From the NCBI GenBank assembly GCA_965601785.1, contig OZ271838.1, positions 3,698,916 through 3,762,915 of the forward strand: DNA of 64,000 nt, read 5' to 3'. Shown one piece after another: positions 44,978-61,390 of this stretch (within the stretch, counting starts at the first letter, position 1; each line of letters begins with the position of its first letter). A program made the position numbers and the translations under genes. This stretch comes from Woeseiaceae bacterium. Lineage in GTDB: Bacteria > Pseudomonadota > Gammaproteobacteria > Steroidobacterales > Woeseiaceae. Under the pieces are notes generated by a model. That model worked only from the letters and a program-made list of their open reading frames with translations. It was not told the origin of the DNA and did not search any database.

Positions 44978-45017
44978 TACAGGTCCCTTGCGTGGTTGTC
45001 CGACGCTGCGGCGAGCC

Positions 45018-45458: not shown

Positions 45459-45460
45459 GG

Positions 45461-45907
45461 TCAGGACTCCTTTCTTGTCGAGGGGTCGGCATCGGCCCCG
45501 AGCCGGACCGGCTTCGAGGAGCAACAGAACTCGCCGAGTCCAGCCACTTCCAGCTTGCCGGATATGAATAAAAACAGATGGTTGCACACCACTCGCATCA
45601 TCTCGGCACGATGCGCGGTATCCGCATGCCCGGGCTCGAGCGTGATCAGATTGTAGTGGTAGGCGATCTCGCGGCAGGTCTCGCGGCAAGCGTTGAAGCT
45701 CGGCTCACCTTTCGCCCCCTGCCGATGCAGTGCGAGCAGGCGAAAGCCTTCGCGCGTGTCGCGCGTCGGTTCCTCGCCGCGCGTCTCGATAATCCAGTGT
45801 TCGAGCACCGTCTCCGACAGCGCCAGCAACGCGTCGGCCGCAGCCCCGGGATCCACCGTAGTGTCCACGGCCTCGATCGCGGCGCCGAGTTCCGAAAGCG
45901 ATTTCAT
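45461..45907 (-). CDS. Hypothetical Cys-rich protein, translationally coupled between shdrB2 and lbpA
   Basis: 148 aa. ATGA overlap with the shdrB2 stop, and its own stop is 2 nt before the lbpA ATG. Five Cys, including CRETC (CX3C) and a C-terminal FCC. Confidence 0.6.
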   Translation of the reverse strand: MKSLSELGAAIEAVDTTVDPGAAADALLALSETVLEHWIIETRGEEPTRDTREGFRLLALHRQGAKGEPSFNACRETCREIAYHYNLITLEPGHADTAHRAEMMRVVCNHLFLFISGKLEVAGLGEFCCSSKPVRLGADADPSTRKES

Positions 45908-46851: not shown

Positions 46852-46852
46852 G

Positions 46853-47617
46853 TCAGGCCACCTCCTTTTCCGGGCGCTTGGCGAGAGCCGCAAGATTGAG
46901 GGCCTCGGTATGGTGTTCGCGCTGCTCGTCGATGTACTCCTGCATTGCGTCCCTCGCTTTCGACCAGTTGCTGGTCCGCGGCGCAACGAACGACGCCAGC
47001 CCCATGCGAATCAACAGACCCGTGGGCAAGCCGCGCAGCATCTTTTTGACCATCTCGATCATCCAGTCCTGGAACAGGCTCTGGCCGGTCCTCGAAAAGA
47101 ACCGACGAATCGTGCGGCTCTCCTCGATCTTGCCGGTGGCGAGGATCTGCTCCGTGAAGACCTCGTCGAAGTGCATCGACGGCGACTTCGGCGTGTGCCC
47201 GCGGAGCTCGAGCCAGTGCGACGTTGCCTTCATGACGCCCTCGGGGAAGACGTCGCGCGGGCAGGCATAGGTGCACTTGTTGCAGGATACGCACTGCCAG
47301 ATGATGTCCTTGTCGCGCAGGAGCTCGGACTCCATGCCCATGCGGATCAGGTAGATCCAGTAGCGCGGATTGAAGTCCGGGTTGATGGCGTTGACCGTGC
47401 ACGAGTTCGTGCAGGAACCGCACTGCCAGCAGCGATGGATATTCTCGCCGCCCGGCAGCGACGCGATTTCGTCTTCCAGCGCCTCGTTGTAGTCGCTTAC
47501 AACACGCGACTCGATGAACGTACTCCAGTGCCCCGAGACGTCGACTCCGTCGATCACGAGTTCATCGTGAGTCTTGAGGTTTTCCGGGCGGATCAGCGAT
47601 TTTTCATGGATCGGCAT
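46853..47617 (-). CDS. shdrC2: sHdrC2, heterodisulfide reductase subunit C-like ferredoxin
   Basis: Two [4Fe-4S] motifs: CWQCGSCTNSC and CVSCNKCTYACP. Confidence 0.85.
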   Translation of the reverse strand: MPIHEKSLIRPENLKTHDELVIDGVDVSGHWSTFIESRVVSDYNEALEDEIASLPGGENIHRCWQCGSCTNSCTVNAINPDFNPRYWIYLIRMGMESELLRDKDIIWQCVSCNKCTYACPRDVFPEGVMKATSHWLELRGHTPKSPSMHFDEVFTEQILATGKIEESRTIRRFFSRTGQSLFQDWMIEMVKKMLRGLPTGLLIRMGLASFVAPRTSNWSKARDAMQEYIDEQREHHTEALNLAALAKRPEKEVA

Positions 47618-48474
47618 TAGTCGGCTTTCTCGCTCAGTAGTGGCGCATCGTCGATGACGAAGGCCTCGCCATCGATGGATTTCAGGCGCGTCTTGCCGCT
47701 GCCCGGCTGGACGCCGTCCAGTCCGAGAAGTCGGCGCGTGTGTTGCATCGGGTCTTCGGGTGCCGAGAAGTCGGCACGGAGGTAGCTACCGCCCTGCTCG
47801 CAAATGTAGTTCGCATAGACCTGGGCGCAGAGCATGTCGGCGTACTGCAGGATGTCGCGGAAGAACCCGTTGTCACTCAGGAACTGGCTCAGCTCCTCGC
47901 GCAGCATCAGGAAGGTCCCGTAGCCGTCGCCAACGGGAATCGTCAGCGCATCGATATCGCCGTCGGTGTGCCAGATCTCGCGCAGCACGCCCGTATTCGC
48001 ACGCGCGTCCCACACCCAGCGGTTCATGATCGGGTAGCGCTCGGGCTCGACGTTGTGCAGGAGCTCGGTGGCAAGGTCGCGCACCCAGCGATGCTTCTTG
48101 TCACGCGGGAAACGCTCGACGAAGACCGTGACGCGCTGGTCGACGGGTTCGACATCGTCGAAGAGGGCCGGCATCGCATCGGCGATACGGTAGAAAGAGG
48201 CCTCATCGAGCCAGGGCGCTACGCGGCGGCGCACGGTCGCCATGAAGGTACAGAGCCCTTTGAAGGACTCGATGCCGACGCGCTCGGGACCGTCTTTGAA
48301 GGCTTCCTGGAACATGGCGCTCTTGAGCTTGATCGCGTCTGCGTAGCGTTCGACGCCGCCATGCTCCTCGGCGCCCTGCACCATTTGCTCCAGCGCGGCG
48401 CGGAGCGCCTGCCCGTCGAGGTCGAGTACCGGGCGCTCGATGTCCTTGGGTTTGACGGCGAACAGGGAAGCCAT
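47617..48474 (-). CDS. shdrH: sHdrH-position conserved hypothetical protein
   Basis: 285 aa from the ATG at 48474, 4 nt after the shdrA stop. TAATG overlap with shdrC2. Its position matches the hyp gene of shdrC1B1A-hyp-C2B2 clusters. No cofactor motif seen. Confidence 0.6.
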   Translation of the reverse strand: MASLFAVKPKDIERPVLDLDGQALRAALEQMVQGAEEHGGVERYADAIKLKSAMFQEAFKDGPERVGIESFKGLCTFMATVRRRVAPWLDEASFYRIADAMPALFDDVEPVDQRVTVFVERFPRDKKHRWVRDLATELLHNVEPERYPIMNRWVWDARANTGVLREIWHTDGDIDALTIPVGDGYGTFLMLREELSQFLSDNGFFRDILQYADMLCAQVYANYICEQGGSYLRADFSAPEDPMQHTRRLLGLDGVQPGSGKTRLKSIDGEAFVIDDAPLLSEKAD

Positions 48475-48478
48475 GGCC

Positions 48479-49537
48479 TCAGGCAGACTCGGCGATAGCG
48501 CTCTCAGCCTCACGGCTGGCAGAAAGCACCGCCATGGCGGCCGCGTGACCCTGCGCGATCGAATCGTCGATCGTCTCGGGACCCGTAGCGGAACCCGCCA
48601 CGTAGACGCCCGGGCGCGAGGTCTCACCCATGGCGCCGTAGCGATTCGCGGCGTCGATGTAGCCGTGCTGTTCGAGATCGATACCAAAGGTGCCGGCGAT
48701 GTCCCGGTTGTCGACATTCGGGTCCATGCCAATCGCGTGCACGACCATGTCGAACGGAATCGTGATCGGTCGCTTCACGAGTGTATCTTCGCCCTTGACG
48801 ATGAGCTTCTCGCCGTCGGACGTGACTTCCGCGATGCGCGCCTTGATGTACTTGACCTTGAACTCTTCCTGGCTGCGCCAGTAGTACTTGGTCTCGTATA
48901 GCCCGAAGGTACGGATGTCCATGTAGTAGATATAGACATGGCAGTCCGGCAGCTCCTCGCGAATCTCCATGGCCATGTTCGCAGACACGGTGCAGCAGAT
49001 CTTCGAGCACCACTCCCGGCCGATCTGCCGGTCGCGCGAACCGACGCAGAGCAGGATCGCGACACGCTCGGGCTTGCGGCCGTCAGAGGGACAGCGCACG
49101 CCCTGTCCCGAGGAGATCATCTGTTCGACCTGGGTCGTCGTAACGACGTCAGGGAAGGTGCCGAAGCCCCACTCCGGCTTGTTGACCGAGTCGAAGTGTG
49201 TGAAACCGCTGCAGAGTATCGCCGCTTCCGCCTCGAGGCTCTCACCGTTGGACAGCTTTGCCTCGAAGTCGCCCGGTGAGCCGTCGAACTGCGTGACCGT
49301 GGCGCCGGTGACAACCTTGACGTGGGGATTTCCTTCGACGCGGTCCACCATGCCGCCAATGGCATCCTTCGCCCATTCGCCCGAGGGTACGAGCTTGGCG
49401 TAGCCCGACAGGATCGGCGCGCCGCCGAGGCGGTCTTCCTTCTCGACGATGACGCAGTCCTTGCCGACAGTGGCGAGGCTGTGTGCGGCGGCGAGTCCGG
49501 CGGGTCCGCCACCGAGGATCAGTACCGGCTTGCTCAT
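48479..49537 (-). CDS. shdrA: sHdrA, short HdrA-like FAD/[4Fe-4S] flavoprotein
   Basis: 352 aa with ILGGGPAGLAAA dinucleotide-binding motif and Cys cluster CVGSRD...CSKICC. ATGA overlap with shdrB1. Confidence 0.85.
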   Translation of the reverse strand: MSKPVLILGGGPAGLAAAHSLATVGKDCVIVEKEDRLGGAPILSGYAKLVPSGEWAKDAIGGMVDRVEGNPHVKVVTGATVTQFDGSPGDFEAKLSNGESLEAEAAILCSGFTHFDSVNKPEWGFGTFPDVVTTTQVEQMISSGQGVRCPSDGRKPERVAILLCVGSRDRQIGREWCSKICCTVSANMAMEIREELPDCHVYIYYMDIRTFGLYETKYYWRSQEEFKVKYIKARIAEVTSDGEKLIVKGEDTLVKRPITIPFDMVVHAIGMDPNVDNRDIAGTFGIDLEQHGYIDAANRYGAMGETSRPGVYVAGSATGPETIDDSIAQGHAAAMAVLSASREAESAIAESA

Positions 49538-50892
49538 TTCGGGCCCTCCACGGCACGGAAGCCCGGACCGGAGGTAATCATCTTGCGCGGATCGTAGAGC
49601 GTCTCGCCCCGGCCGGCCTCGACTTCCTTGAGATAGTCTTCGAACTCCGCCTTCTTCGCCTGCCAGTCGATACCGAGTTTCTCCATTAGCGACTCGGTCG
49701 ACGAGGCGTGCCAGTGTGACTGCACGATCTTATAGGGATGCGCGCCGCACACGAGCGCTGCGAACTGGACGTCGGCGAGCACGGGCAGGTCGACCGGCTT
49801 GCCGGCCGCGGCGCCGATCCACTGGTTCTTGTCGAGCGTCGTGATGCAGCCCGTGTCGTGGCCAACCATCATGTCGGCACGCGCCTCTTCCTGGGCGACG
49901 CGAATCTTGCGATCGATCGCGAAAGACCGCGTGAATTCGCGCTCGGAGATGATGTGCCGGAACCCGAAGCCGCAGCAGTCGTACCAGGTCGAGTAGTCGA
50001 TCACCTGGGTACCCAGCGCCTCCATCAAGCCGGTCGTCACCGCGACGCGGTTGCCCTCGAGGATGTCGTCGTCGTAAATCGCATCCTCGGGCACCATCTT
50101 GTAGACATGGCAGGCCGGGTGCACGGTCGCACGAATGTGGCTGCAGTCGATGACCTGGCGCTTCTTGATCTCGTGGCGCATGACGTGCAGCCACTCGGAG
50201 TAGTGCACGACCTCCTCGGGAATGAGCAGCTTGCCGTCGACGAGCCGGCCGAGCTTGCCGAGGATGGTCTTCATACGCTCGCGCAGCTTGGCGGACTGGA
50301 TCAGGTAGCCGCGCACTTCCTTGTAATTGCCGAAGGAGGTACCGCAGTGCACAAGCGGGTAGTAATACGATTCCGGCAGACCCTGCGCCTTGGCGGCGAC
50401 GTAGGCCTGGTGGAAGTTACGCAGGAACACGGCCGCGAGGCTCTCGATGTTGCCGATACCCGAGCCGTGGTAGTTCCAGGCCGTGCAGGAGGTCTGGTCG
50501 GTCTCGTCGAGGTACTCGATGCCCATCTCGTTCATGAGCCAGAGTAGGGACGCCGGGTAGCCCGGGATGTTGCCGCACTGTCCGCAGGACTTGTGATGCC
50601 AGAGGCGCGTGGTCGGGATCTTCTTGTCCCAGCCGTACAGCGTCTTGACCATGACGGGTTCGTGCTCGTCGCTGACGCGATGCACGACGATCTCGCCGTC
50701 CTTCTCCAGCTCCCACATGGCATCGCGAACATCTTCGACGCGATCCTTGTTAGTCAGCATGGACCGCTTGTTGATGATCTGGTCGACCCAGACCGTCGCG
50801 ACGTGGGCATCTTCCTTGCTGAGGTTAGCGTCCTGCCATTCGGCGCCATGGCCGGTAAAGCGCTCGCCGTCGTTGCCGTTACCGTGGTTCAT
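49534..50892 (-). CDS. shdrB1: sHdrB1, heterodisulfide reductase subunit B-like
   Basis: 452 aa with Cys motifs HKSCGQCGN and YDCCGFGFRH (CCG domain). Confidence 0.85.
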   Translation of the reverse strand: MNHGNGNDGERFTGHGAEWQDANLSKEDAHVATVWVDQIINKRSMLTNKDRVEDVRDAMWELEKDGEIVVHRVSDEHEPVMVKTLYGWDKKIPTTRLWHHKSCGQCGNIPGYPASLLWLMNEMGIEYLDETDQTSCTAWNYHGSGIGNIESLAAVFLRNFHQAYVAAKAQGLPESYYYPLVHCGTSFGNYKEVRGYLIQSAKLRERMKTILGKLGRLVDGKLLIPEEVVHYSEWLHVMRHEIKKRQVIDCSHIRATVHPACHVYKMVPEDAIYDDDILEGNRVAVTTGLMEALGTQVIDYSTWYDCCGFGFRHIISEREFTRSFAIDRKIRVAQEEARADMMVGHDTGCITTLDKNQWIGAAAGKPVDLPVLADVQFAALVCGAHPYKIVQSHWHASSTESLMEKLGIDWQAKKAEFEDYLKEVEAGRGETLYDPRKMITSGPGFRAVEGPK

Positions 50893-50948
50893 CGTTGTAC
50901 TCCTGGTGTCACCGGGCAGGCGCGCCGAGACGCCACCTGCGCAAGTTC

Positions 50949-51692
50949 TCAGTCGTCCTGCTCGTCGAGGAAGTCCTCATAGTCGTCGCGCTTCTCGTCC
51001 ATGATGTCGCTGATGACGTCGAACAGGTTTTCGTCAATGGTCTCAAGGCTGTCGAGCACACCGGTCTCTTCCCAGATCGTGTAGAGCTCGACGGATGTCT
51101 TGAGGTTGACCTCCCACGCCGTCTTGGTCGTGTGCAGCGTGGGCATCGGGATAGCCTTGCGCAGCGTCGTAAGCGGCGCATCGACTTTCGAGATATTCGG
51201 CCCCCAGTCCGCGAAACCCTCGGGGTTAATCATGTCGGGCGACAGCTGGTTGCCCGTGGAAATCAGCTTGAGCATGACGCGGCTGAAGGGCCTCAGCACG
51301 CTTTTCGCGGATTCCATGCCGTGCTTGATCGCGGTCTCGCGCATAAGCATGACGAGCCCGCCCGGCGAGTTGCCGAAGGGACAGCGCGCAGCGCAGGTGT
51401 AGCACTGCGCACAGGACCAGATCTTCTCCTGCATCGCATCGTGGATGCCTTCGAGGTTCTCGGTCCACAGCAGCTGCACGATCTCGCGCGGGCTGAAGTC
51501 GTAGTAATGCGCCGCGGGGCAGGTTGCCGTACAGATACCGCAGTTCAGGCAGCCGTTGAGTTCGTGGTCAAAACGCAGGTCGGCCTGGATGTCCTGGAAG
51601 ATCTCTTCGAGTTGTTCACGATCGACCGGCGGCGAATCCGACACCGGATCGCCCATAACGTGTTGAACTCGGCTGGTGGCGGAATGCGACAT
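50949..51692 (-). CDS. shdrC1: sHdrC1, heterodisulfide reductase subunit C-like ferredoxin
   Basis: Two [4Fe-4S] motifs: CLNCGICTATCP and CAQCYTCAARCP. Confidence 0.85.
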   Translation of the reverse strand: MSHSATSRVQHVMGDPVSDSPPVDREQLEEIFQDIQADLRFDHELNGCLNCGICTATCPAAHYYDFSPREIVQLLWTENLEGIHDAMQEKIWSCAQCYTCAARCPFGNSPGGLVMLMRETAIKHGMESAKSVLRPFSRVMLKLISTGNQLSPDMINPEGFADWGPNISKVDAPLTTLRKAIPMPTLHTTKTAWEVNLKTSVELYTIWEETGVLDSLETIDENLFDVISDIMDEKRDDYEDFLDEQDD

Positions 51693-51714
51693 GGTCTTGG
51701 TCCTCTCTGTGCGC

Positions 51715-52092
51715 CTAGTAGGACAGGACCCTGCAGTCGCCTTCCATGACCTCTTCGATCAGGTGGGCGCCACCGACTATGCCTTCGCATTCGGGGATCA
51801 GGTCGTCCTTGGTCATATCGAACAGGTCGAGGTTCGGCGAGCAGCAGAAGAACTTGACGCCGGCCTCGTGGGCATCCTGGATGAAGCTGTAGACGCTCTT
51901 CGGCGACCCTTCCTTGACGAACAGGGTCTCGGCGACGCCTTTCTTCATCAGGCGGCCGGACGTTGCGGTGCAGATGACGTCGACGTCGTAGTCCATGGCG
52001 GCGGCAACCGTCGCCTGGAAAATCGGCGCTCCGAGCTCCTCGCCGTTACGCGGGTCGGTATTCGCCATGACGATAATGAGTTTCTCAGCCAT
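51715..52092 (-). CDS. dsrE3: DsrE3-family sulfurtransferase (DsrE/DsrF fold)
   Basis: 125 aa with a DsrE-like fold and conserved Cys in FFCCSPN. GGAGAGAGGG SD. First gene of the shdr transcription unit. Confidence 0.75.
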   Translation of the reverse strand: MAEKLIIVMANTDPRNGEELGAPIFQATVAAAMDYDVDVICTATSGRLMKKGVAETLFVKEGSPKSVYSFIQDAHEAGVKFFCCSPNLDLFDMTKDDLIPECEGIVGGAHLIEEVMEGDCRVLSY

Positions 52093-52112
52093 CCCTCTCT
52101 CCCCCTGGCTGG

Positions 52113-52134
52113 TGAACGGCGGACAAGCCGTTCA
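52113..52134. promoter_or_regulatory. Inverted repeat TGAACGGC-N6-GCCGTTCA between the GATase1-like gene and dsrE3 (operator, or weak terminator/attenuator)
   Basis: 8-bp perfect arms read directly from the sequence, flanked by the AT-rich tract TTAATTAGCATATACTAAATTA (52139-52160). Confidence 0.3.
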
Positions 52135-52161
52135 ACAGTTAATTAGCATATACTAAATTAC

Positions 52162-52893
52162 TCAAGTATCCAAACCGCCGACACCCGCATCGAGCGCCTT
52201 CGGCGTTGACATAAGCGCCGTGCGCTGCACGAGCCCGGTCATGATCGGCACCAGCTCATCCTCGAGCCGGGGCTGCAAACCGCGGAGTACCTCGAGCTTC
52301 GCCGGCGCATCGTCGGGCACCTCTTCGAACTCCATGACGAGGTCCTCGATCATCCCCAGTTTGATACCGGGATTGCCGGCGAATCCATACGCATTTTCGC
52401 CAACTTGAAAGACTGCGGGCTCCCCGGCCGCGTCGACCGCCAGCACAGTCGCGTCGGAGGGCGGCACCGCTCGATCGCGCATGTAGGTCACCTGGCAGAA
52501 GGTCTCGGGCAGGAAACCGTTGAGCGCGTCGTCCCGCGTGCGCGTCGCCTCGCCAATATCGAACGCGAGCGGCGTCGGCGCAGAGCCGCCACCGGCTGCT
52601 ATCGCAAGTATCTGGGCGCCGAGGCCGAAGCCGACGACGGGGGTCCCTTCCTCGAGCCGCTGCCGGGTAAGCTCGACCTCGCGATCGAGCGTCGGCAGGT
52701 CGCGACCGCCCGCCGAGCCCCATGGACCGCCTCCAAGCAGGAACAGCGCGTCGGCTGGCAGCTCCGCCTCCGGCAGGCTGCCGGCCGCGAACGGCCGGAA
52801 ATACTGGAATCGAATCCGGCGACCCTCGAGATGATCTTCCATTAGCCCCAGGTACTCGCCGGACGTATGCTGGATTACCGCCACGACGTTCAT
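52162..52893 (-). CDS. Class-I glutamine-amidotransferase-fold protein lacking the Cys-His-Glu triad
   Basis: 243 aa from the ATG at 52893. GATase1-like layout, but the nucleophile elbow reads GFGLGAQ (canonical G-x-C-x-G-H-Q) and the HPE position reads GNPG. Confidence 0.6.
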   Translation of the reverse strand: MNVVAVIQHTSGEYLGLMEDHLEGRRIRFQYFRPFAAGSLPEAELPADALFLLGGGPWGSAGGRDLPTLDREVELTRQRLEEGTPVVGFGLGAQILAIAAGGGSAPTPLAFDIGEATRTRDDALNGFLPETFCQVTYMRDRAVPPSDATVLAVDAAGEPAVFQVGENAYGFAGNPGIKLGMIEDLVMEFEEVPDDAPAKLEVLRGLQPRLEDELVPIMTGLVQRTALMSTPKALDAGVGGLDT

Positions 52894-52945
52894 TGCGGCG
52901 CCCTCGCGACGGGCGAGCTTGAACGCGTCGTCGGCCTTGCTGCAC

Positions 52946-54022
52946 TCAGCCACGACGGTCAGCAGCCAGCGCGCTGTCGATCGCGGCAATGAAGTCGGAC
53001 GGCAGTACGCTCAGGGTATCGGTCGGGTGCGCATCGAAGAACGCCTCAATGGCGGCGGCGTATTCGTCGAGTCCGGCGCCGGCGAGATGCGCCTCGAGAT
53101 CGAGCACGAAGCGCGGTGGCGTTACGAAGAAGTCGCCGGTAAACAGCACGCGCTGCAGCAGCCTGCGCGGCGGGCTCTCGAGTTTCAGGTAAGCATCGAT
53201 CGTGCCGCCGGCACTCGTATGGCTACCGGCGAGGAAGCCGCTGTCATCCCTGACGTTATCGATCTCGAACAGGAACTCGTCCTTGCCGATCTCCTCGTCG
53301 AAGCAGTGGCTCGCGAGGCCTTCTTCCTGCTCAGTGATCTCGCCCGGACTCGCCTCGATGCCGAGCCTCTCGGTCAGGCCCTTAACGACCGCCGCCTTGA
53401 CCGCGTCGAGATCCGGCATATCGTCGCCCAGGAGGTCGCGGAGACTCACGACACGATCCGCCGCCGAACCGAGCTCGCGCTTCGCGAGCTTGCTGTCGGG
53501 TACGCGCAGGGCTTTGACCATCCGGTCGGCGTCGAAATCGACGAGCACCGTGCCCTGGTAGATCAGCACGTCGCCGTCGTAGAAGCCGCCCGTGCCGCTG
53601 ATCTTGCGGCCGTCCACCTCGATGTCGTTGCGCGGTCGAAAGCGGGCGTCGATACCCAGCGTGGACAGCCCGGCGGCGACCGCGTTACAGATCTCTCTTG
53701 CCACGTCGGGCAGCTTGGCGACCCCCAGCGCGGAGCGGTGGAAAACGAGTTCCCAGCCGAGCTGGCTCTCGTCGAGATAAATCGCGCCGCCGCCCGTGAT
53801 GCGGCGGACGAGACCAATGCCATTCGCCTCGCAGTACAGCCTGTTGACCTCGAGGCTCAGGTCCTGGTGGCGACCCACGAGGACCGTCGGCGGAAAGCGC
53901 AGGAAGCGAATCGTGTCGGGCACGAGGTTCTGCTGGCGCGCCTCGATCAGCGCGGCATCGAACGCGATATTCGCGCGGCCCTCGCGGACGCCGGTATCGA
54001 TGATCCGGAACGGGTCACCCAT
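52946..54022 (-). CDS. slpl(AB): Lipoate-protein ligase, sLpl(AB) type
   Basis: 358 aa with LplA motifs RRITGGGAIYLD and VDGRKISGTG. A C-terminal accessory domain is fused. It lies in the cluster with lbpA. Confidence 0.85.
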   Translation of the reverse strand: MGDPFRIIDTGVREGRANIAFDAALIEARQQNLVPDTIRFLRFPPTVLVGRHQDLSLEVNRLYCEANGIGLVRRITGGGAIYLDESQLGWELVFHRSALGVAKLPDVAREICNAVAAGLSTLGIDARFRPRNDIEVDGRKISGTGGFYDGDVLIYQGTVLVDFDADRMVKALRVPDSKLAKRELGSAADRVVSLRDLLGDDMPDLDAVKAAVVKGLTERLGIEASPGEITEQEEGLASHCFDEEIGKDEFLFEIDNVRDDSGFLAGSHTSAGGTIDAYLKLESPPRRLLQRVLFTGDFFVTPPRFVLDLEAHLAGAGLDEYAAAIEAFFDAHPTDTLSVLPSDFIAAIDSALAADRRG

Positions 54023-54034
54023 CAGCTGGCTGCC

Positions 54035-55285
54035 CTATTCGACGGTAACCGGGATGTCGAGCTGCCGGCGAATCTTCTTCAGGTCCTTCTTGCCCGGCTG
54101 GAATGGATAGCTCGCGATATCGCTTGGCGGTGAGTCGCCGTAGGGGCGATCACAGGCCGAGATGTCCTCCCGGACCTTGCCGGGGCAGCCTGACGTGCGG
54201 AACGCCACGCCCTCGGCGATGACGGCATCGAGTTCCGCCGCCGGTATGCCGAAGTCGGTCACCCTGCCCTGTTCATCGAAGCGCATATGGTCGACGCGCA
54301 CGTCGCGGTAATCGATGAGGTAGCGGGCGAGCTGCACGCGCCGCCACTGGTCGCGCGGCGTCGCAGGCAGATGGTCCATCAGGGAACCGTCTTCAGGGAA
54401 GAAACAGAACATATGGCTGTGGCCGCCAAGGTCGACGAGGCGCTGTACGAGCGTCAGCACTTCGTGTTCGGTTTCGCCCATGCCGACGATGATGTGGGCG
54501 CCAAACTTCTCGGGCCCGAAAATATCCGCTGCATCCTCGAGGATTTCCCAGTACTTCGACCACTTGTGTGGCGACTGCACACCCTTGCCGCGCGTGCGGT
54601 CGAATACCTCAGGAGTCGCGGCATCGAGGGCAACCGTGAAGATATCGGCACCGAGATCACGCGTCTTCTGGACGTCCTCGCGAGTCATCGTCGTCGGATT
54701 GGAGAGGATCGATACCGGTATCTCGTGCGGTTCGATGCGATCGGTCCACTGCTTGAGCACCGTGAAGGTGTCGTCTTCCGATCGCGGGTGCGTGATCATC
54801 GAGATGCACATGCGATGGAAAGGACTCGACGCCGGATCCTTTGCCACGATGTCGATGATCTGGGACATCGGCACGGCGGGCCAGTCGACGCGAATAAAGT
54901 TCCGGTCCGCGTAATCGCGATCCGCCTCGCGGTGGCGGGCGAGGCCACAGTAGGCGCAGTTGGCGCGACAGCCCTCAGGATAGGTCAGGAGCAGATTCAG
55001 GCAACGCGTGCACTCGCAGCCGTACATCTTGCCGCCCATGATGCCGAGCGTAATCGCGGCGGCCGTCGACAGCTGTACGTACTCGGGCGACTTCATGTGC
55101 GGCGCCAGTATGTTGTTGTTGGGCAGGTAGACACCTTCGGGCGGAATGTCGTTTGCCTTGACGTGCTTGCCGTTCCGGCGCTCGGCGGGTGTACGCTCGG
55201 GGCTTCGCGGCTGCATGGCGCCGAACGCATTGAAATCGACGCTGCTCTCTTCGGCGGGGCTCTTTTTCTGCTCGATACAACTCAT
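54035..55285 (-). CDS. Radical SAM protein, LipS1/LipS2-type lipoyl synthase component
   Basis: 416 aa with a CX3CX2C motif (CRANCAYC) preceded by an extra CECTRC Cys cluster. I cannot assign it to S1 or S2 by eye. Confidence 0.7.
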   Translation of the reverse strand: MSCIEQKKSPAEESSVDFNAFGAMQPRSPERTPAERRNGKHVKANDIPPEGVYLPNNNILAPHMKSPEYVQLSTAAAITLGIMGGKMYGCECTRCLNLLLTYPEGCRANCAYCGLARHREADRDYADRNFIRVDWPAVPMSQIIDIVAKDPASSPFHRMCISMITHPRSEDDTFTVLKQWTDRIEPHEIPVSILSNPTTMTREDVQKTRDLGADIFTVALDAATPEVFDRTRGKGVQSPHKWSKYWEILEDAADIFGPEKFGAHIIVGMGETEHEVLTLVQRLVDLGGHSHMFCFFPEDGSLMDHLPATPRDQWRRVQLARYLIDYRDVRVDHMRFDEQGRVTDFGIPAAELDAVIAEGVAFRTSGCPGKVREDISACDRPYGDSPPSDIASYPFQPGKKDLKKIRRQLDIPVTVE

Positions 55286-55302
55286 GATCGATTACTCACA
55301 GG

Positions 55303-56340
55303 TCAGGCCGCGCAGGAACGCGCGATCGTTGGAGAGGCGTCGCTGCCCAGCTTGATCGAGCAGCAGGAGTGGGCCTGTACGAAAGGCCGGCCGATTTCGT
55401 GTGCGACCGAGACAGCGCCATCGGCCGGGAACGCGATACCGTCGAGCCCGGCCATAATCGCGTAGGCATCGGTCACGCGCTTGTGCATACCCGGCGGCCT
55501 GGCGCAGCCGAGCAGTACCTGCTTGTCGGCAAGCCGCTGCCGCGCCTCGCCGAAGATACGGCCCACATCGCCCGTCGACGGCGTAACGAAGGTGCCGGGC
55601 TTCGCGTAGAACGGCATGATGACGACGAGCACCAGCGCGGTCACCGGGTAGCGGCTGACGATATCGAGTGCGCGGGACTCGCCGAGGATGCGCCCGTAGT
55701 GCAGGCCGACGACGATGTGCGGCGTCACTTCCATGCCCGTGCTGCACAGTGCCGCGAGCGTCGACTCGAAGTCTTCTACCGGCCGATCGAGCTTGTAGAC
55801 CTCGCGGATCGTGTCGTCGTGACCGATCACATCCATCATGACCGTATCGACGCCTGCCGACTCCATGGCCTTCGCGCGTTGCTCGTCAAGGAGTGCACTG
55901 TGGATGGCGACGCTGAGATCCGGAAAATCCCGCTTCAGACCCTCGACGACCGGCAGGAAACGACCGTAGTTGATCTCGTTCTTGCGATTCGAGCCGCCGG
56001 ACAGGAGGAAGCCCTTTAGGCCGTCGCTCTCGATCAGCGCCCGGACCTTTGCATCAAGCATCTCCGGGTTTGTCGCCGGGATCATTGGCTCGAGGATCTT
56101 CTTCTGGCAATGATCGCAGTTGAGTCCGCACTCGCCCGCCGTAATCGAGAACGCGGGAAAGCTGTTCTTGCCGCAACCCTTGAGTTCACTCGAGGCGTAC
56201 TCCTTGAAGGTTGGGGTAGAGAAACGGACAGGGCGTTCGCGGACCCGATCGGCGCGCGACTCGAACTCGGCCACGAGGCCCTCGTCGAACTCCGCATCCT
56301 CGAGATCCTCGATATGTTTAAGCGCGTCAAGCCAGGTCAT
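55303..56340 (-). CDS. Radical SAM protein, LipS1/LipS2-type lipoyl synthase component
   Basis: 345 aa with a CX3CX2C motif (CGLNCDHC) and C-terminal Cys (HSCCS). 17 nt from the next radical SAM gene. Confidence 0.7.
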   Translation of the reverse strand: MTWLDALKHIEDLEDAEFDEGLVAEFESRADRVRERPVRFSTPTFKEYASSELKGCGKNSFPAFSITAGECGLNCDHCQKKILEPMIPATNPEMLDAKVRALIESDGLKGFLLSGGSNRKNEINYGRFLPVVEGLKRDFPDLSVAIHSALLDEQRAKAMESAGVDTVMMDVIGHDDTIREVYKLDRPVEDFESTLAALCSTGMEVTPHIVVGLHYGRILGESRALDIVSRYPVTALVLVVIMPFYAKPGTFVTPSTGDVGRIFGEARQRLADKQVLLGCARPPGMHKRVTDAYAIMAGLDGIAFPADGAVSVAHEIGRPFVQAHSCCSIKLGSDASPTIARSCAA

Positions 56341-56375
56341 TGTGTGACTCCCCCCGAGTCGTCCGGCGAATCGGC

Positions 56376-57548
56376 CTACGGCCGGTTCGAATCAACCAGT
56401 GTTTGTATCGTGTCCCTGACGGGTCCTGTATACGGTGTATCCGCAATGCGCCTGAGCCACGCCGGATCGCGCTCGTCTTCGTCGACGAGTTCGCAGTCCA
56501 TCGCGGCGAGGATTTCCACAGCATCGGCCGGCAGCGAATCGGGAATGGGACAATGCGCAAGCAACGCCCAGAGACCGGCCCAGTATCGCGTCAGCGTCCA
56601 CGGGTTATAGCCGCCGCCGCCGAGCACGACCGTCGGCAGGCCAAGATTTACCAGTCGGTCGACCGTTGACCATAGCGCGACGTTCGTGAGCTGCATCGCC
56701 GACAAGGGATCGCCGGCCAGGCAGTCGGCCCCACAGCAGATCACGAGCGCATCGGCGTGACGCTGGTCGATGACCGGCATCACGACCCTGTCGATGAGGA
56801 AATGCAGCTCGCTGTCGATCAGGCCGCGCGGCACGGGCAGGTTGTATACCCCGCGACCAGGGTCGGACGCGGTGCCTGTATGCGGCCAGCGGTCTGCCTC
56901 GTGAATCGAGATCGTGGTCACGGCATCGTCATCGACAAAGGCCGCCTCGACGCCGTCCCCGTGGTGCGCGTCGAGATCGACGTAGGCCACGCGCCGCGCA
57001 CCGTCGTCGGCCAGCGTACGAATCGCGAACACCGGGTCGTTGAAATAACAGAAGCCACAGGCACGATCCGGCCGGCCATGGTGGGTACCGCCCGACGGAT
57101 GGAATGCCACGCCGCCATCAAGCGCAAGGCGCGCCGCTTCTATGGAGCCTTGCACCGTCGCAGCGGCCCGCGCGAATACGCCTGGAAACAGTGGATTCTC
57201 CAGGGTTCCGAAGTGGTAGCGCTCGCGCTCGGCCCGCGCGACCGACCCTACGGTGTCTGCGTATTGCAGCGCCTCGATGTAGTCAAGATCATGAAACCGG
57301 GAAAGCGTCTCGCTCGGGGCGGGGCCGACCGCGCATGTGTCTGCATCACCGAGCCAGCCCATGGCCCGGGCGAGGTCGCGGACGGCGCTGTGCCGGATGA
57401 TCGCAAGCGGGTGGTTTCCCGGGAAAGCGGGTTTGCCGAACAGCTCGCTCGTAATGAAAGCGGCGTGTCGCGCCTGGGCAGCGACAAGTCCGTGGTCACG
57501 GGCGTGCTGCTGGTTTTCGAGGGGCCGCTGCATCGGGACCGGGAACAC
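56376..57548 (-). CDS. Histone-deacetylase/AcuC-fold Zn-dependent deacylase
   Basis: HDAC signatures are intact: SGGTHHG (His-His), GFCYFND, DLDAHHGDG (metal ligands), GGGGYN (catalytic Tyr). Start uncertain: GTG at 57548 or ATG at 57533. Confidence 0.8.
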   Translation of the reverse strand: MFPVPMQRPLENQQHARDHGLVAAQARHAAFITSELFGKPAFPGNHPLAIIRHSAVRDLARAMGWLGDADTCAVGPAPSETLSRFHDLDYIEALQYADTVGSVARAERERYHFGTLENPLFPGVFARAAATVQGSIEAARLALDGGVAFHPSGGTHHGRPDRACGFCYFNDPVFAIRTLADDGARRVAYVDLDAHHGDGVEAAFVDDDAVTTISIHEADRWPHTGTASDPGRGVYNLPVPRGLIDSELHFLIDRVVMPVIDQRHADALVICCGADCLAGDPLSAMQLTNVALWSTVDRLVNLGLPTVVLGGGGYNPWTLTRYWAGLWALLAHCPIPDSLPADAVEILAAMDCELVDEDERDPAWLRRIADTPYTGPVRDTIQTLVDSNRP

Positions 57549-57630
57549 CCTGGACTGGTTGAAATGCCGTAGTCAGAGTATTCCATACCGCTAATAAAGA
57601 CAATTATGATATTCTAATATTCAGAGAGAT

Positions 57631-57645
57631 CGTTCATTCTGAACG
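57631..57645. promoter_or_regulatory. Inverted repeat CGTTCA-TTC-TGAACG immediately upstream of the dsrE2-like RBS
   Basis: Perfect 6-bp arms, 15 nt before the ATG at 57660. It shares the GTTCA/TGAAC half-site with the repeat at 52113-52134. Confidence 0.3.
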
Positions 57646-57659
57646 GGAGGGGAACCACA

Positions 57660-58211
57660 ATGGCCAGTGAAGCATCGGCCGTGACGTCCGACATGCAGAC
57701 GTCCGCGGACCAGGCGCCCGTAGCGGCGCCCGAAACCAAGAGCATGTCCATCATTGTTACCAAAGGCTCGCTCGACTGGGCGTATCCGCCGTTTATTCTT
57801 GGCACCACTGCCGCAGCAATGGGCTTGCCGGTGACAATGTTCTTCACCTTTTACGGGCTGCCGCTGCTCCTGAAAAAGCTCGACCTTAAGCTTACGGCTG
57901 CCGGCAACCCCGCAATGAAGATGCCTATGATGGGCGCGCACGTCGGCCTGCCGAATCTCCTGACGGCGGTCCCGGGCGTCGACGCCGCCTGCTCGACGAT
58001 GATGAAGAACCTCATGAACAAGAAAGGCGTTGCCTCGATCGAGGACCTCAGGGAACTCGCCGTGGACGCAGAAGTTCGCATGATCGCGTGCCAGATGACG
58101 ATGGACCTCTTCGAGTACTCCCTCGACGACATGATCGAGGGAATCGAACTCGGCGGAGCGGCCACCTACATCGAGTGCGCCACGCAAGCCGATATCAACC
58201 TGTTCATCTAG
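57660..58211 (+). CDS. DsrE2/COG2210-like DsrE-fold sulfur-relay protein
   Basis: 183 aa with a GGGAGGGG SD, a hydrophobic segment (PPFILGTTAAAMGLPVTMFFTFYGL) and conserved Cys in IACQMTMDLF. Adjacent to tusA. Confidence 0.65.
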   Translation: MASEASAVTSDMQTSADQAPVAAPETKSMSIIVTKGSLDWAYPPFILGTTAAAMGLPVTMFFTFYGLPLLLKKLDLKLTAAGNPAMKMPMMGAHVGLPNLLTAVPGVDAACSTMMKNLMNKKGVASIEDLRELAVDAEVRMIACQMTMDLFEYSLDDMIEGIELGGAATYIECATQADINLFI

Positions 58212-58228
58212 CCGGGGGAGGCAAGACC

Positions 58229-58459
58229 ATGGCAGACCATACTCTCGACGCGAAAGGGCTCAATTGCCCGCTACCGATCCTCAAGGCCCGCAAGGCGCTC
58301 AAGGAGGTGCCCGCCGGCGGTACGCTGGAAATCCTCGCGACCGACCCGGGCGCGGTAGCCGACTTCGAGGCGTTTTGCCGGCAGACGGGCAACGAACTCG
58401 TCGAGCATTCGGAGGACGACTCGGTGTACCGCTTCCTGATCAAGCACACGGCAGCATAG
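58229..58459 (+). CDS. tusA: TusA-family sulfur carrier protein
   Basis: 76 aa with the DAKGLNCPLPILK (CPxP) active-site motif. Internal ATG of track ORF 58088..58459. Confidence 0.9.
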   Translation: MADHTLDAKGLNCPLPILKARKALKEVPAGGTLEILATDPGAVADFEAFCRQTGNELVEHSEDDSVYRFLIKHTAA

Positions 58460-58474
58460 TCGCTGCGCGAACGA

Positions 58475-58501
58475 GGGCGTCGCTGAAGTCGGCGCCCTTT
58501 T
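58475..58501 (+). terminator. Rho-independent terminator candidate after tusA
   Basis: GGGCGTCG-CTGAAGT-CGGCGCCC (8-bp stem with one G-U pair) followed by TTTT, 16 nt after the stop codon. Confidence 0.55.
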
Positions 58502-58544
58502 CGTATGCGCGGCGCGCATCGATCGCATAGACCAGGAGACCCTA

Positions 58545-59600
58545 ATGAACGTCTTACCCGGGTTGCTGCTGGCGCTGGTGATAGCGCTTGCCGGCCAGTT
58601 CCTGTCCGATTTCATCGGCATTACGCTGATGGGCCTGCCGAAGAGCCCAATTAGCGCCATCATGATGGCGATCCTGCTGGGCATCGTCGTCAACAACGTG
58701 ATCCGGCTGCCGGAATCGTTCAAGCCCGGGATTCGTTTCGGGCTGGTGCGGGTACTGCGGCTCGGCATCGTGCTGCTGGGTATTCGCCTGTCGATTTTCC
58801 AGGCCGGCGAGATCGGCCTGAAGGCGTTGCCTGTGATCATCGGCGCCGTCACCGCGGCACTCGTTATCGTGAGCTTCCTGAGCCGCAAGCTGGGCTTGAG
58901 CCGCAAGCTCGGCACCCTGCTCGCGGTGGGCACGAGCATTTGCGGGGCAACGGCAATCGTCGCCACGGCGCCGACGATTGGCGCCAAGGACGACGAGGTC
59001 AGCTACGCCGTAGCCTGCGTCACGCTGTTCGGCATTCTCGCCATGCTGATCTACCCGTTCGCCGCACACGCGATCTTCGCGGGCGACGCATTCCCTGCAG
59101 GGCTCTTCCTCGGCACCTCGGTGCACGAGACGGCGCAGGTCGCGGGTGCCGGACTCGTTTACCAGCAGTACTACGGCGACGCACTCGCCCTGGATGCAGC
59201 AACTGTCACGAAACTGGTACGCAACCTCGGCATGCTCGCCATTATCCCGCTAATGGCAATCCTGTATCACCGTAACTCCGATGACGGTGAGCAGGCACCC
59301 GCCTGGTACAAGATGATCCCGCTGTTCGTCGTAGGTTTTGCGGTGATGAGCATACTGCGTACCGTAGGCGATGCGGGTGACCCGGCTTTCGGCATAATCC
59401 CGGTCGAACGCTGGAACTGGCTCGTTGCCCACACCAAGGAACTGGCCGAGCTGCTGCTTGCGATTGCCATGGCCGCGGTCGGTCTCGGCACGAGCGTCAA
59501 GGGCCTGATCTCGATCGGCTACAAGCCGCTGGCCATGGGCCTCGTCGCCGCGCTGCTCGTCGGCGGCGTTAGCCTGGTCCTGATCAGCGCACTCTATTAG
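58545..59600 (+). CDS. yeiH: YeiH/UPF0324 family membrane protein (putative anion exporter)
   Basis: 351 aa, about 10 hydrophobic helices, resembling the YeiH family. AGGAGA SD. Confidence 0.75.
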   Translation: MNVLPGLLLALVIALAGQFLSDFIGITLMGLPKSPISAIMMAILLGIVVNNVIRLPESFKPGIRFGLVRVLRLGIVLLGIRLSIFQAGEIGLKALPVIIGAVTAALVIVSFLSRKLGLSRKLGTLLAVGTSICGATAIVATAPTIGAKDDEVSYAVACVTLFGILAMLIYPFAAHAIFAGDAFPAGLFLGTSVHETAQVAGAGLVYQQYYGDALALDAATVTKLVRNLGMLAIIPLMAILYHRNSDDGEQAPAWYKMIPLFVVGFAVMSILRTVGDAGDPAFGIIPVERWNWLVAHTKELAELLLAIAMAAVGLGTSVKGLISIGYKPLAMGLVAALLVGGVSLVLISALY

Positions 59601-59609
59601 GAGCACACG

Positions 59610-60923
59610 ATGGCGAAGAAGTCCCGCGGTCTGCACGAGCTCTATTCGAACGGCGCTGACGCCGACGGGACGCTCTGGGGTCGCCAGGTCGACCCGCTGA
59701 CGCGACGCGGTTTCCTGAAGGGCAGTGGACTCGCCGCCATGTCGGCTGCGCTCGGCGCCAGTATTCCCTTCGCAGAGTACATGCCAGGCGGCCTGATTCC
59801 TGCCGCTTTGGCACAGAGCGACGCGGCCTTCGAGATCCCGGGCAAGGACGGCCTGGTTGTCCTTAATGACCGGCCGATCAACGCCGAGACCCCGGCACAC
59901 CTCCTCGACGATCGCGTGACGCCGGCATCGCGCCTGTTTGTCCGCAACAACGGCATTCCGCCCACAGCGGAGGCCATCGATCCCGATAGCTGGACGCTGG
60001 AGATCGGCGGGGAATCGGCGACAGAGACGGTGAGCCTGACGCTCCCCGAGCTCAAGGCGAAGTTCAAACACTACACCTACCAGCTGTTGATCGAGTGCGG
60101 CGGCAACGGCCGCAGCGAATTCGTGCCGTCGGCGTCGGGCAACCAGTGGACGACCGGCGCGGTTGGCTGCCCGGAGTGGACCGGCGTCCGCCTGGCCGAC
60201 GTGCTCGACTACGTCGGCGTGCGCGACGATGCCGTATATGTCGCGTACTACGGCGCGGACCGGCATGCGAGCGGAGATTCGCGCAAGGCATCGATCTCTC
60301 GCGGCGTGCCGATCGCGAAAGCGCGCGAAGACGAGTCGCTGATCGCGTGGGCGCTCAACGGCGAAGACATGCCACTACAGAACGGCCACCCGTTGCGACT
60401 CGTGCTGAGCGGCTGGCCCGCCTCGGTGTCGGGCAAGTGGCTCAATCGACTCCTGATTCGCGATCGCGTGCACGACGGCGCGAAAATGACAGGCTCGTCG
60501 TACCGCGTGCCCTGCAGCCCGGTCGCGCCGGGCACGACGGTGCCCGACGAAGACATGTGCATCATCGAGGCGATGCCCGTGAAATCACTCGTGACCTTCC
60601 CGAAGTCGGGTATCGAGCACTCGATCGACAAGCCGCTTGCGGTACGGGGGCACGCCTGGGTGGGCGACGACCGCGTCCGCCGTGTCGACGTCTCGATCGA
60701 CTTCGGTGCGAGCTGGCAAAAGGCAAGGCTCGAGAGGCCGGCGAACCGCCTTGCCTGGCAGCACTGGCAGACAGCTATCGAGTTCCCCGGCAAGGGCTAT
60801 TACGAAGTCTGGGCGCGTGCCACGGACAAGAGCGGTCGCTCGCAGCCCATGGTGTTACCGGGCTGGAATCCCAAGGGTTACCTGAACAACGCCTGCCATC
60901 GCATCGCCGTCCAGGTCGTCTGA
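59610..60923 (+). CDS. sorA: Periplasmic sulfite dehydrogenase, molybdopterin subunit (SorA / sulfite-oxidase family)
   Basis: Tat leader LTRRGFLKGSGLAAMSAALG, a Mo-ligand Cys region LIECGGNGRSEF, and a C-terminal dimerisation-domain-like region. Confidence 0.8.
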   Translation: MAKKSRGLHELYSNGADADGTLWGRQVDPLTRRGFLKGSGLAAMSAALGASIPFAEYMPGGLIPAALAQSDAAFEIPGKDGLVVLNDRPINAETPAHLLDDRVTPASRLFVRNNGIPPTAEAIDPDSWTLEIGGESATETVSLTLPELKAKFKHYTYQLLIECGGNGRSEFVPSASGNQWTTGAVGCPEWTGVRLADVLDYVGVRDDAVYVAYYGADRHASGDSRKASISRGVPIAKAREDESLIAWALNGEDMPLQNGHPLRLVLSGWPASVSGKWLNRLLIRDRVHDGAKMTGSSYRVPCSPVAPGTTVPDEDMCIIEAMPVKSLVTFPKSGIEHSIDKPLAVRGHAWVGDDRVRRVDVSIDFGASWQKARLERPANRLAWQHWQTAIEFPGKGYYEVWARATDKSGRSQPMVLPGWNPKGYLNNACHRIAVQVV

Positions 60924-61300
60924 TGCGAAGGATCGTAGCTGTCGTCGCGACCGCCCTGCTCGCCTGCGGCGTCGCACCCTTTGCGGCGGCCGAATCCGAA
61001 GTCGACGCCTACTCCGGGCTCATCAAAGAGGGCGACTGGGAGCTCGTGCGCAACAACTGCATTGCCTGCCACTCGGGCAAGCTGATCACCCAGCAGCGCG
61101 GCTCCCGGGAGCAATGGCTGAAGATGATCCGCTGGATGCAGGCGACGCAAAACCTCTGGGCGTTCGAGCCGGCGGTCGAGGCGAAGATTCTCGATTACCT
61201 CGCCGCGACGTATCCCTCGGCCGAAGACCGTCGTCGGGCGCCGATCCCCAGGGCATTGATGCCGCCGAACCCCTACAAGGCAACATCAACCGAGCCCTGA
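60923..61300 (+). CDS. sorB: Monoheme cytochrome c, SorB-like partner of SorA
   Basis: 125 aa with a signal peptide and a single CIACH motif. TGATG overlap with the sorA stop. It is the in-frame internal start of track ORF 60095..61300. Confidence 0.7.
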   Translation: MRRIVAVVATALLACGVAPFAAAESEVDAYSGLIKEGDWELVRNNCIACHSGKLITQQRGSREQWLKMIRWMQATQNLWAFEPAVEAKILDYLAATYPSAEDRRRAPIPRALMPPNPYKATSTEP

Positions 61301-61390
61301 GCGCCCCGCGTTGGTAGAAACCGCTATAGCGGCCGACCGCCCCTTCCATTAGATTTTTCTAATAAGAAGAACGCCTTTGGAGGGGGGCGA

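Follow-up and report, generated by a model that had tools for sequence, protein, structure and literature searches.

A conserved HDAC-fold gene heads an LbpA-linked lipoate-assembly operon of known type in Woeseiaceae and other Proteobacteria

A route to lipoate that relies on LipS1 and LipS2, two radical S-adenosylmethionine (SAM) proteins, was established in 2023, and the genes published for it are lipS1, lipT, lipS2, slpl(AB), lipX and lipY. The ligase sLpl(AB) attaches free octanoate or lipoate to the lysine of LbpA using ATP, and LipS1 and LipS2 insert two sulfurs (Tanabe 2023, PMC10332631); octanoylation of LbpA followed by two-step sulfur insertion has been demonstrated for the Thioalkalivibrio and Hyphomicrobium homologues (PMC10332631). 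In Hyphomicrobium denitrificans the genes are arranged as lipS1-lipT-lipS2-slpl(AB)-lipX, and lipX, named there and called a putative glutamine amidotransferase, has a start which overlaps the stop of slpl(AB) (Tanabe 2023, PMC10332631). A "GATase1" gene had already been drawn in hdr-lbpA clusters (Fig. 2 in Cao 2018, PMC6067878). Some clusters carry lipY, which encodes a putative fatty-acid transporter (PMC10332631). Here we describe an operon of this type from a Woeseiaceae bacterium, found at positions 52162-57548 on the minus strand of a 64-kb window (the whole stretch of contig OZ271838.1 analysed, 64,000 nucleotides; all coordinates are positions within it). Its first gene encodes a protein of the histone deacetylase (HDAC) fold, and a homologue of this gene resides directly upstream of lipS1 at most of the related loci surveyed.

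The cluster of H. denitrificans, in which dsrE3C-shdr-lbpA2 lies beside the lip genes (Cao 2018, Tanabe 2023), resembles the window in featuring lipS1, lipS2, slpl(AB) and lipX followed by dsrE3-shdr, in the overlap of the lipX start with the slpl(AB) stop, and in its ArsR-type regulator, sHdrR. It differs because it has lipT and no HDAC gene is listed for it, whereas the window has an HDAC gene before lipS1 and no lipT. The lipS1-slpl(AB)-lipT-lipS2-lipY set of Thioalkalivibrio sp. K90mix, which lipoylates LbpA in Escherichia coli (Tanabe 2023), shares the core enzymes and the target family with the window, but the genes come in another order, lipT and lipY are present, no HDAC gene has been described, and the cloned set is without lipX. 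Deacetylases, AcuC and HDAC are mentioned neither in Cao 2018, nor in Tanabe 2023 and its supplements (which have no Woeseia entry), nor in the 2024 sulfurtransferase, the 2024 SoxT and the sHdrR papers. A link of HDAC to the LipS1/S2 pathway was not found in the open-access and bioRxiv literature, and mention elsewhere is possible.

The stretch is an LbpA-linked sLpl(AB)/LipS1/LipS2 lipoate-assembly operon of known type. It is filled by five consecutive open reading frames (ORFs) of the same strand, ordered HDAC-lipS1-lipS2-slpl(AB)-lipX and lying directly upstream of dsrE3-shdr-lbpA, so that the lip genes are linked on one strand with shdr and lbpA (GCV_H, 1.3e-30). An initial annotation, made from the DNA letters and translated ORFs, had proposed five gene families upstream of dsrE3-shdr, and had read them as an operon of this kind; Pfam and NCBIfam searches bear out all five, the GATase1 match being weak, and the gene families together with the shdr and lbpA context bear out the operon. 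The HDAC ORF (56376-57548) encodes 390 amino acids (aa) from a GTG, and the corresponding database protein (P0001) 385 aa from an ATG at 57533; the promoter-proximal gene is thus given as 56376-57533. lipS1 (55303-56340, 345 aa, motif CGLNCDHC) and lipS2 (54035-55285, 416 aa, motifs CRANCAYC and CECTRC) are followed by slpl(AB) (52946-54022, 358 aa), which encodes a lipoate/octanoate:protein ligase to which an LplB domain is fused at the C-terminus, and by lipX (52162-52953, likely GTG start, within an ORF spanning 52162-52989). In the window sequence the junctions measure 35 nt (HDAC to lipS1), 17 nt (lipS1 to lipS2) and 12 nt (lipS2 to slpl(AB)). The GTG at 52953, supported by an N-terminus conserved among relatives, makes lipX overlap slpl(AB) by 8 nt, over the TGA of the latter, whereas an ATG at 52896 would leave a gap of 49 nt. 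A spacer of 69 nt separates lipX from dsrE3.

Among the core enzymes, LipS1 has NF053742 as best family match (9e-57, 192.7 bits, curated cut-off 230), and LipS2 has NF053743 (2.9e-56, 191.1 bits, curated cut-off 270), in line with the earlier identification of the two radical SAM proteins as LipS1 and LipS2. Residues C71, C75, C78 and C279 of LipS1 are invariant, and C326/C327 nearly so, in 36 diverse homologues; LipS2 homologues of the related loci are 68–89% identical. sLpl(AB) matches Pfam LplA-B_cat at residues 16-216 (3.5e-46) and NCBIfam LplB (NF053749) at residues 287-352 (2.6e-08), and its best solved relative is Thermoplasma LplA (2ars, 2.3e-25). No solved relatives of LipS1 and LipS2 were found by sequence search of the PDB. 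The motifs quoted in the initial annotation, namely those of the radical SAM proteins given above and RRITGGGAIYLD and GRKISGTG of the ligase, are all found in the window translations.

The HDAC protein matches Pfam PF00850 (Hist_deacetyl) at 3.5e-61, with 207.6 bits against a cut-off of 27.9, and no NCBIfam model. Its best solved relative, over the full length, is Aquifex aeolicus HDLP (1c3r, 4.8e-62); HDAC8, HDAC2 and Rpd3 come next. An AlphaFold (AF2) model built on 49 sequences (predicted local distance difference test, pLDDT, 90.6; predicted template modelling score, pTM, 0.90) has the arginase-deacetylase fold and superposes on 1c3r with TM scores of 0.89/0.92 and a root-mean-square deviation of 2.2. 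The active-site motifs of the window protein are GGTHH, D-L-D-A-HH, G-A-D and GGGGY; the HH pair, D-x-D-x-H, GAD and GGGGY are kept in 70–71 of 71 HDAC sequences, 69 of them encoded directly upstream of lipS1, among which overall identity is only 44–64%. Sequences and model together thus point to an intact, apparently active zinc amidohydrolase of the HDLP/AcuC type with a complete active site. Aquifex HDLP (1c3p/1c3r) and AcuC have the same fold as the window protein and 32–33% identity over the full length, and they share its zinc ligands, tandem His pair and catalytic Tyr.

The HDAC proteins linked to lip genes form a clade with its own signature, GG-T-HH plus a short S-x-H-E-x-x-R-W-P loop, found in 190/191 sequences; GG-M-HH and QSPEYAFPF stand there instead in all 120 sequences from Aquificae. 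Thr thus replaces the Met before the His pair, and the R-W-P loop is three residues shorter than the Y-A-F-P-F loop. The signature sites are residues 155 and 217-225 of the 390-aa numbering, the loop reading E-x-x-R-W-P-[YFH]-[ST]-G. We take residue 155 and the R-W-P loop positions to line the active-site cavity or substrate tunnel, on the model of the HDLP and HDAC8 structures, and because both would be pocket-lining, a changed acyl specificity of the lip-linked clade is plausible. Databases name the homologues AcuC. An association of AcuC in the strict sense, with acuA, acuB and Acs, is not seen: the constant neighbour is lipS1, and no acuA/acuB-type GNAT or CBS-domain genes and no Acs occur among the annotated neighbours in the window and in four related loci (L001, L003, L005 and L007).

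The linkage was surveyed in one genome per GTDB species with an alignment of 10 LipS1 sequences, LipS1 being used as anchor to avoid anchoring on HDAC itself. The 80 closest loci were kept, with LipS1 identities of 69–81%; the LipS1 lineages of Thioalkalivibrio, Acidithiobacillus and archaea lie outside this sample. The loci belong to Gammaproteobacteria (Woeseiaceae, Lysobacterales), Betaproteobacteria (Casimicrobiaceae, Usitatibacter, other Burkholderiales) and Alphaproteobacteria (Hyphomicrobiales, Hyphomonas, Sphingomonadaceae, Parvularculaceae, Robiginitomaculum, Paracoccaceae and others). Loci in which the sequence reaches 1.3 kb or more upstream of lipS1 (74/80) were considered evaluable, and HDAC was scored by tblastn. 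An HDAC homologue was found directly upstream of lipS1, on the same strand, in 65 of the 74, and elsewhere within the locus in two more; homologues of the LipS1-anchored loci are 45–63% identical, save for one degraded match (32%). HDAC is therefore common in nature, occurring in 65 species in the sampled loci. Database protein searches with HDAC and LipS1 gave only close relatives among the top 120 matches, and hundreds of close metagenome homologues were met in Woeseiaceae. Two cultured isolates with the HDAC-lip arrangement are named in the survey, Hyphobacterium lacteum HN-65 (L051) and Ostreiculturibacter nitratireducens FR2A1 (L071). Four additional loci from different assemblies, anchored on HDAC (61–65% identity), feature HDAC-lipS1-lipS2-slpl(AB)-lipX-dsrE3-shdr, with dsrE2-like/tusA divergent.

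The distance from the HDAC stop to the lipS1 start has a median of 18 nt and is often 0–40 nt or negative. About 45 loci have the two genes closely spaced or overlapping, and overlaps of 1, 4 or 14 nt were found in 16 of the 69 loci with HDAC directly upstream (four HDAC-anchored loci are included in the 69). An apparent HDAC-LipS1 fusion in L048 was rejected, as a TAA and 72 nt of spacer lie between the two genes. Three loci have an inserted gene, of about 350–390 aa, between HDAC and lipS1 (L056, 8925-9980; L081, 8907-9965; L046, 4042-5226, on the opposite strand). The inserted proteins of L056 and L081 carry the motif ERTNFCTMG, by which we take them to be YeeE/SoxT-like membrane proteins; such an insert would tie a presumed sulfur importer to the HDAC-lip gene group.

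Where the clusters are broken up, HDAC stays with the lip genes. HDAC-lipS1-lipT-lipS2-slpl(AB) stands alone in L035, L058 and L071, its neighbours being unrelated genes, with no lipX, dsrE3 or shdr within 7–10 kb, and in the rearranged loci L045, L052 and L065 HDAC remains with the lip genes and lipX with dsrE3-shdr. The partner of HDAC is the lip module, not sHdr. Pairwise distances of HDAC correlate with those of LipS1 (Mantel r 0.74, 0/999 permutations) and of sLpl(AB) (Spearman 0.65); these correlations are as strong as those among the core genes, and HDAC changes at about the same rate as the ligase. The HDLP orthologues of Aquifex pyrophilus and Hydrogenobacter thermophilus, taken as a negative control, are not linked to lip genes and have housekeeping neighbours. 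Across many proteobacterial species the HDAC gene belongs to the lip module as a conserved part of it, inherited and regulated together with the other genes. The initial annotation had placed two extra proteins outside the described pathway, and had called for a neighbourhood survey of their co-occurrence with the lip genes; for HDAC, unmentioned in the published accounts, both the placement and the co-occurrence hold.

The second extra protein had been described before. The GATase1-like gene of the window is the known accessory gene lipX, matched to lipX of H. denitrificans by position and description (it corresponds to the "GATase1" of Cao 2018 and the lipX of Tanabe 2023), and in at least 50 loci it resides directly 3' of slpl(AB) and before dsrE3. 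In the window it is, from the overlapping start, apparently translationally coupled to slpl(AB). The LipX ORF matches PF00117 with 16.5 bits (0.007), below the cut-off of 22.8, and NCBIfam PRK07053 at 9e-17; its profile matches TM1158 (1o1y), 3m3p and 9xfs in the PDB at about 1e-9. These stand-alone class I GATases of the TM1158 type align with LipX over the Rossmann-like core, including the nucleophile elbow, where G-I-G-L-G-A-Q of LipX faces G-I-C-L-G-x-Q of 1o1y, 3m3p and 9xfs. They keep Cys and H-P-E, whereas all 58 LipX sequences (the window and 57 related loci) feature Gly in place of the catalytic Cys in the elbow (G-x-G-L-G-A-Q) and Gly at the position of the triad Glu (H/N-P-G). The triad His is also replaced, by Asn, in 18/58, the window protein included. 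Because catalytic Cys and Glu are missing, LipX is not a usual glutamine amidotransferase, and the degenerate triad corrects this working label. By its residues LipX is a pseudo-amidotransferase, and we infer, as the most economical reading, that it acts as a non-catalytic partner.

HDAC and dsrE3 also share a putative control element. Between the HDAC gene on the minus strand and the divergent dsrE2-like-tusA genes on the plus strand lies an AT-rich intergenic region (57534-57659), which includes two operator-like palindromes, ATTAG-N6-CTAAT, at 57580-57595 and 57603-57618. A third lies at 52142-52157 (TTTAGTATATGCTAAT on the minus strand) in the lipX-dsrE3 spacer (52093-52161, minus strand). 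Scored as 16 bp with up to 2 mismatches, the palindrome was found in the 200 nt before dsrE3 in 48/52 loci and in the 300 nt before the HDAC gene in 47/58 related loci; of 1560 random windows of 260 nt, 79 contain it. The spacing ATTAG-N7-YTAAT was dropped, as its counts are at chance level; N6 is the conserved form. In H. denitrificans the ArsR-type repressor sHdrR controls and represses lipS1 and shdrA (PMC12423496). The palindrome common to the regions upstream of HDAC and dsrE3 suggests one shared regulon, presumably responsive to sulfane sulfur, to which both the HDAC gene and dsrE3-shdr would belong; by analogy, the palindromes are compatible with control by the sHdrR-like repressor of ArsR type whose gene lies at the cluster end.

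Two further palindromes lie away from the lip and shdr genes. One, perfect (ATTAGATTTTTCTAAT, 61348-61363), is found 27 nt upstream of a gene for a HycI-type hydrogenase maturation protease (61391), after which come HupH and a [NiFe]-hydrogenase small subunit gene; the other (ATTAGTAATTTATAAT, 1511-1526) is found 32 nt upstream of a metallo-beta-lactamase-fold gene (1559-2422), with a gene for a TauE sulfite exporter (2441-3199) behind it. Hydrogenase genes and a possible persulfide-dioxygenase/sulfite-export pair may thus be part of the presumed sHdrR-type regulon. The lipX-dsrE3 spacer also features a hairpin at 52113-52134 (TGAACGGC / GCCGTTCA), between the operator-like site and the dsrE3 ribosome-binding site. 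It is kept in 15 Woeseiaceae-type relatives with varying stem sequence, three pairs with compensatory changes lending it weak support, and no T-tract follows it. A scan for sigma-70 promoters and intrinsic terminators from 44 to 62 kb gave counts near the shuffle means and no usable signal.

The chemistry of the fold bears on what the HDAC protein may do. HDAC11, a zinc-dependent enzyme, removes C8–C18 acyl groups and N-linked lipoate from lysine (10.1101/212043). The sirtuins CobB and SIRT4, like HDAC11, hydrolyse N-epsilon-lipoyl or medium-chain acyl-lysine, which is the reaction proposed for the window protein; sirtuins depend on NAD and are of an unrelated fold, HDAC11 is a eukaryotic class IV enzyme, the window HDAC is of the zinc type, and no description was found of any of the three as encoded in a lipoate-assembly operon. 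Because the fold hydrolyses acyl-lysine amides, HDAC11 removes C8 and lipoate, and the only known acyl-lysine of the module is that of LbpA, the most likely role suggested by gene context and family chemistry is that HDAC serves LbpA lipoylation as an acyl-lysine amidohydrolase. That the stretch is an LbpA lipoate-assembly operon of known type, to which is added a deacylase of N-epsilon-acyl-lysine that has the lipoyl-lysine arm of LbpA as its target, is a reading to which we give an even chance. HDAC would free apo-LbpA of acyl groups (acetyl, for example) that block it or are aberrant, or alternatively would strip wrong or damaged octanoyl or lipoyl groups off LbpA, and would in this way be an eraser or proofreader paired with sLpl(AB) as writer; electrons for the radical SAM steps would presumably come from a general ferredoxin or flavodoxin system. 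A more specific form of the proposal, more tentatively held, makes HDAC a dedicated zinc N-epsilon-octanoyl/lipoyl-lysine amidohydrolase by which LbpA lipoylation would be reversible or proofread, and LipX a non-enzymatic partner of the ligase or of sHdr. We know of no lipoamidase or deacylase that is part of a cofactor-assembly operon.

Several observations weigh against the role on LbpA. No HDAC was found within 10 kb in seven of the 74 loci (tblastn), six of which are labelled alphaproteobacterial; they include Filomicrobium (L087), the nearest Hyphomicrobiaceae locus, which in this differs from the window. The gene may have gone unnoticed because the locus closest to the model organism is one of these. 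HDAC is accessory rather than essential, since these seven loci do without it and the four-gene set of Thioalkalivibrio works in its absence. All surveyed loci fall within a single LipS1 clade which crosses class boundaries and may have spread as a unit, so that the 65 loci cannot be counted as that many independent events. About 14 alphaproteobacterial loci, which have longer spacers, carry a further palindrome between the HDAC gene and lipS1, and HDAC may there be a separate transcription unit. LipS1 and LipS2 score under the NCBIfam curated cut-offs, and the deacylase activity on LbpA is proposed from gene context and family chemistry.

The pattern of lipT speaks to a different proposal, made in the initial annotation, by which the HDAC and GATase1-fold proteins would provide another electron donor or stand-in maturation steps in place of LipT. 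Three LipT domains taken from natural LipT-LipS1 fusion proteins, used as tblastn queries, detected no LipT-like gene in the whole 64-kb window, as the initial annotation had noticed for the stretch itself, and lipT is missing from the cluster in all 22 Woeseiaceae-type loci. It lies between lipS1 and lipS2 in 27 other loci; the relatives that have it follow the order of H. denitrificans, with HDAC in front. Its absence is ordinary, considering these 22 loci and that LipT, regarded in the initial annotation as the usual companion, is found in only about 53% of LipS1/S2 bacteria, and so lacking in about 47% (Tanabe 2023, PMC10332631). In loci scorable for both genes, HDAC-anchored ones excluded, 36 of those with HDAC are without lipT and 21 have it, against 2 without and 6 with lipT among those that have no HDAC. 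This skew would favour replacement, as does the window itself, but the 21 loci carrying both genes show that HDAC does not replace LipT, so that the anti-correlation expected from a replacement fails, and lipX co-occurs with lipT in H. denitrificans and many surveyed loci. Neither protein matched a redox or cofactor-binding family, one being a zinc hydrolase, the other a GATase fold devoid of the triad. Already largely refuted by co-occurrence, replacement of LipT is hardly credible. HDAC might also be a gene captured once beside lipS1 and carried along with a horizontally spreading cluster, without ties to lipoylation. The single LipS1 clade found across classes would fit such a spread, and the seven loci may have lost the gene or never had it; against this, catalytic residues have stayed intact at an overall identity of only 44–64%, HDAC and lipS1 lie close together or overlap in about 45 loci, rearrangements of at least three kinds have left HDAC beside the lip genes, and the gene has its own copy of the shared operator motif. 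Mere hitchhiking is quite improbable.

Two other roles keep HDAC an enzyme but change its substrate. It could supply substrate, freeing octanoate or lipoate from N-acyl amides for use by sLpl(AB), either from GcvH and E2 proteins that LipB/LipA have octanoylated or lipoylated, or from lipoyl-lysine left by protein turnover. The pathway starts from free octanoic acid, the source of which is not named in the discussion of Tanabe 2023, and some clusters carry lipY instead; HDAC stays with the ligase and synthase genes when these are apart from shdr, and HDAC11 is able to cleave C8 acyl and lipoyl groups from lysine. Such a supply would be wasteful, as ATP would be spent to re-ligate an acyl group already attached, and it has to cope with the HDAC-less loci, with the published lip genes of H. 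denitrificans and Thioalkalivibrio, and with the activity of the Thioalkalivibrio set; we regard it as unlikely. About equally unlikely is a regulatory role modelled on AcuC and acetyl-CoA synthetase of Bacillus subtilis, in which HDAC would deacetylate and reactivate the ligase, an sHdr subunit or an acyl-AMP-forming enzyme. The AcuC name given by databases, the fold and catalytic residues of class-I-like deacetylases, and a place in a regulon presumably switched on by sulfur compounds are consistent with it, but the annotated neighbours include neither an acuA/acuB-type acetyltransferase nor an acetyl-CoA synthetase, the two positions taken above to line the pocket differ from HDLP, hinting at another acyl specificity, and the constant partner is lipS1, not a candidate target enzyme.

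Assigned by Pfam and NCBIfam, the downstream context on the same (minus) strand extends from dsrE3 to an ArsR-type regulator (44627-52092), and includes dsrE3 (51715-52092, Pfam DrsE_2), shdrC1 (50949-51692, HdrC-like), shdrB1 (49534-50892, HdrB-like), shdrA (48479-49537, HdrA-like), a shdrH-like ORF between shdrA and shdrC2, shdrC2 (46853-47617, HdrC-like), shdrB2 (HdrB-like, ending at 45904), a 148-aa ORF between shdrB2 and lbpA, the GcvH-like lbpA (45018-45458) and the ArsR-type regulator itself (44627-44977, HTH_5, 2.4e-15). On the opposite side, a divergent operon on the plus strand (57660-61300; ORFs, Pfam and NCBIfam) encodes a DsrE2-like protein, TusA, a membrane protein of the YeiH family (proposed elsewhere as sulfite exporter), a SorA-like molybdoenzyme and what is probably a cytochrome c. 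This divergent neighbourhood is conserved in Woeseiaceae-type loci, and [NiFe]-hydrogenase genes lie beyond it, also upstream of the HDAC gene.

Multi-domain proteins among the LipS1 homologues combine LipT-LipS1, LipS1-LipT, LipS2-LipS1 and LplA-LipS1 (P0295, P0312, P0253, P0249, P0352, P0373); no fusion to HDAC or LipX was seen among them. These natural fusions lend Rosetta-stone support to the published pathway, including LipT as partner of LipS1. A second, distant LplA-like ligase gene occurs in L071 at 64-1140.

Of the three features that set the operon apart as non-canonical in the initial annotation, two, lipX and the missing lipT, are already known, and the two extra proteins, a zinc hydrolase and a GATase fold without triad, do not look like electron donors. 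The lack of lipT is no novelty; the conserved gene of HDAC fold and the degenerate LipX are. Leading the operon in dozens of proteobacterial species from sea and soil, Woeseiaceae among them, HDAC points to an unrecognised step of acyl removal or editing on lipoyl-lysine. If the role on LbpA is true, the bacterial HDLP/AcuC family would gain a defined physiological substrate, a zinc-dependent lipoamidase or deacylase would join the sirtuin-type ones, and the finding would help to explain how LbpA stays functional during sulfur oxidation.

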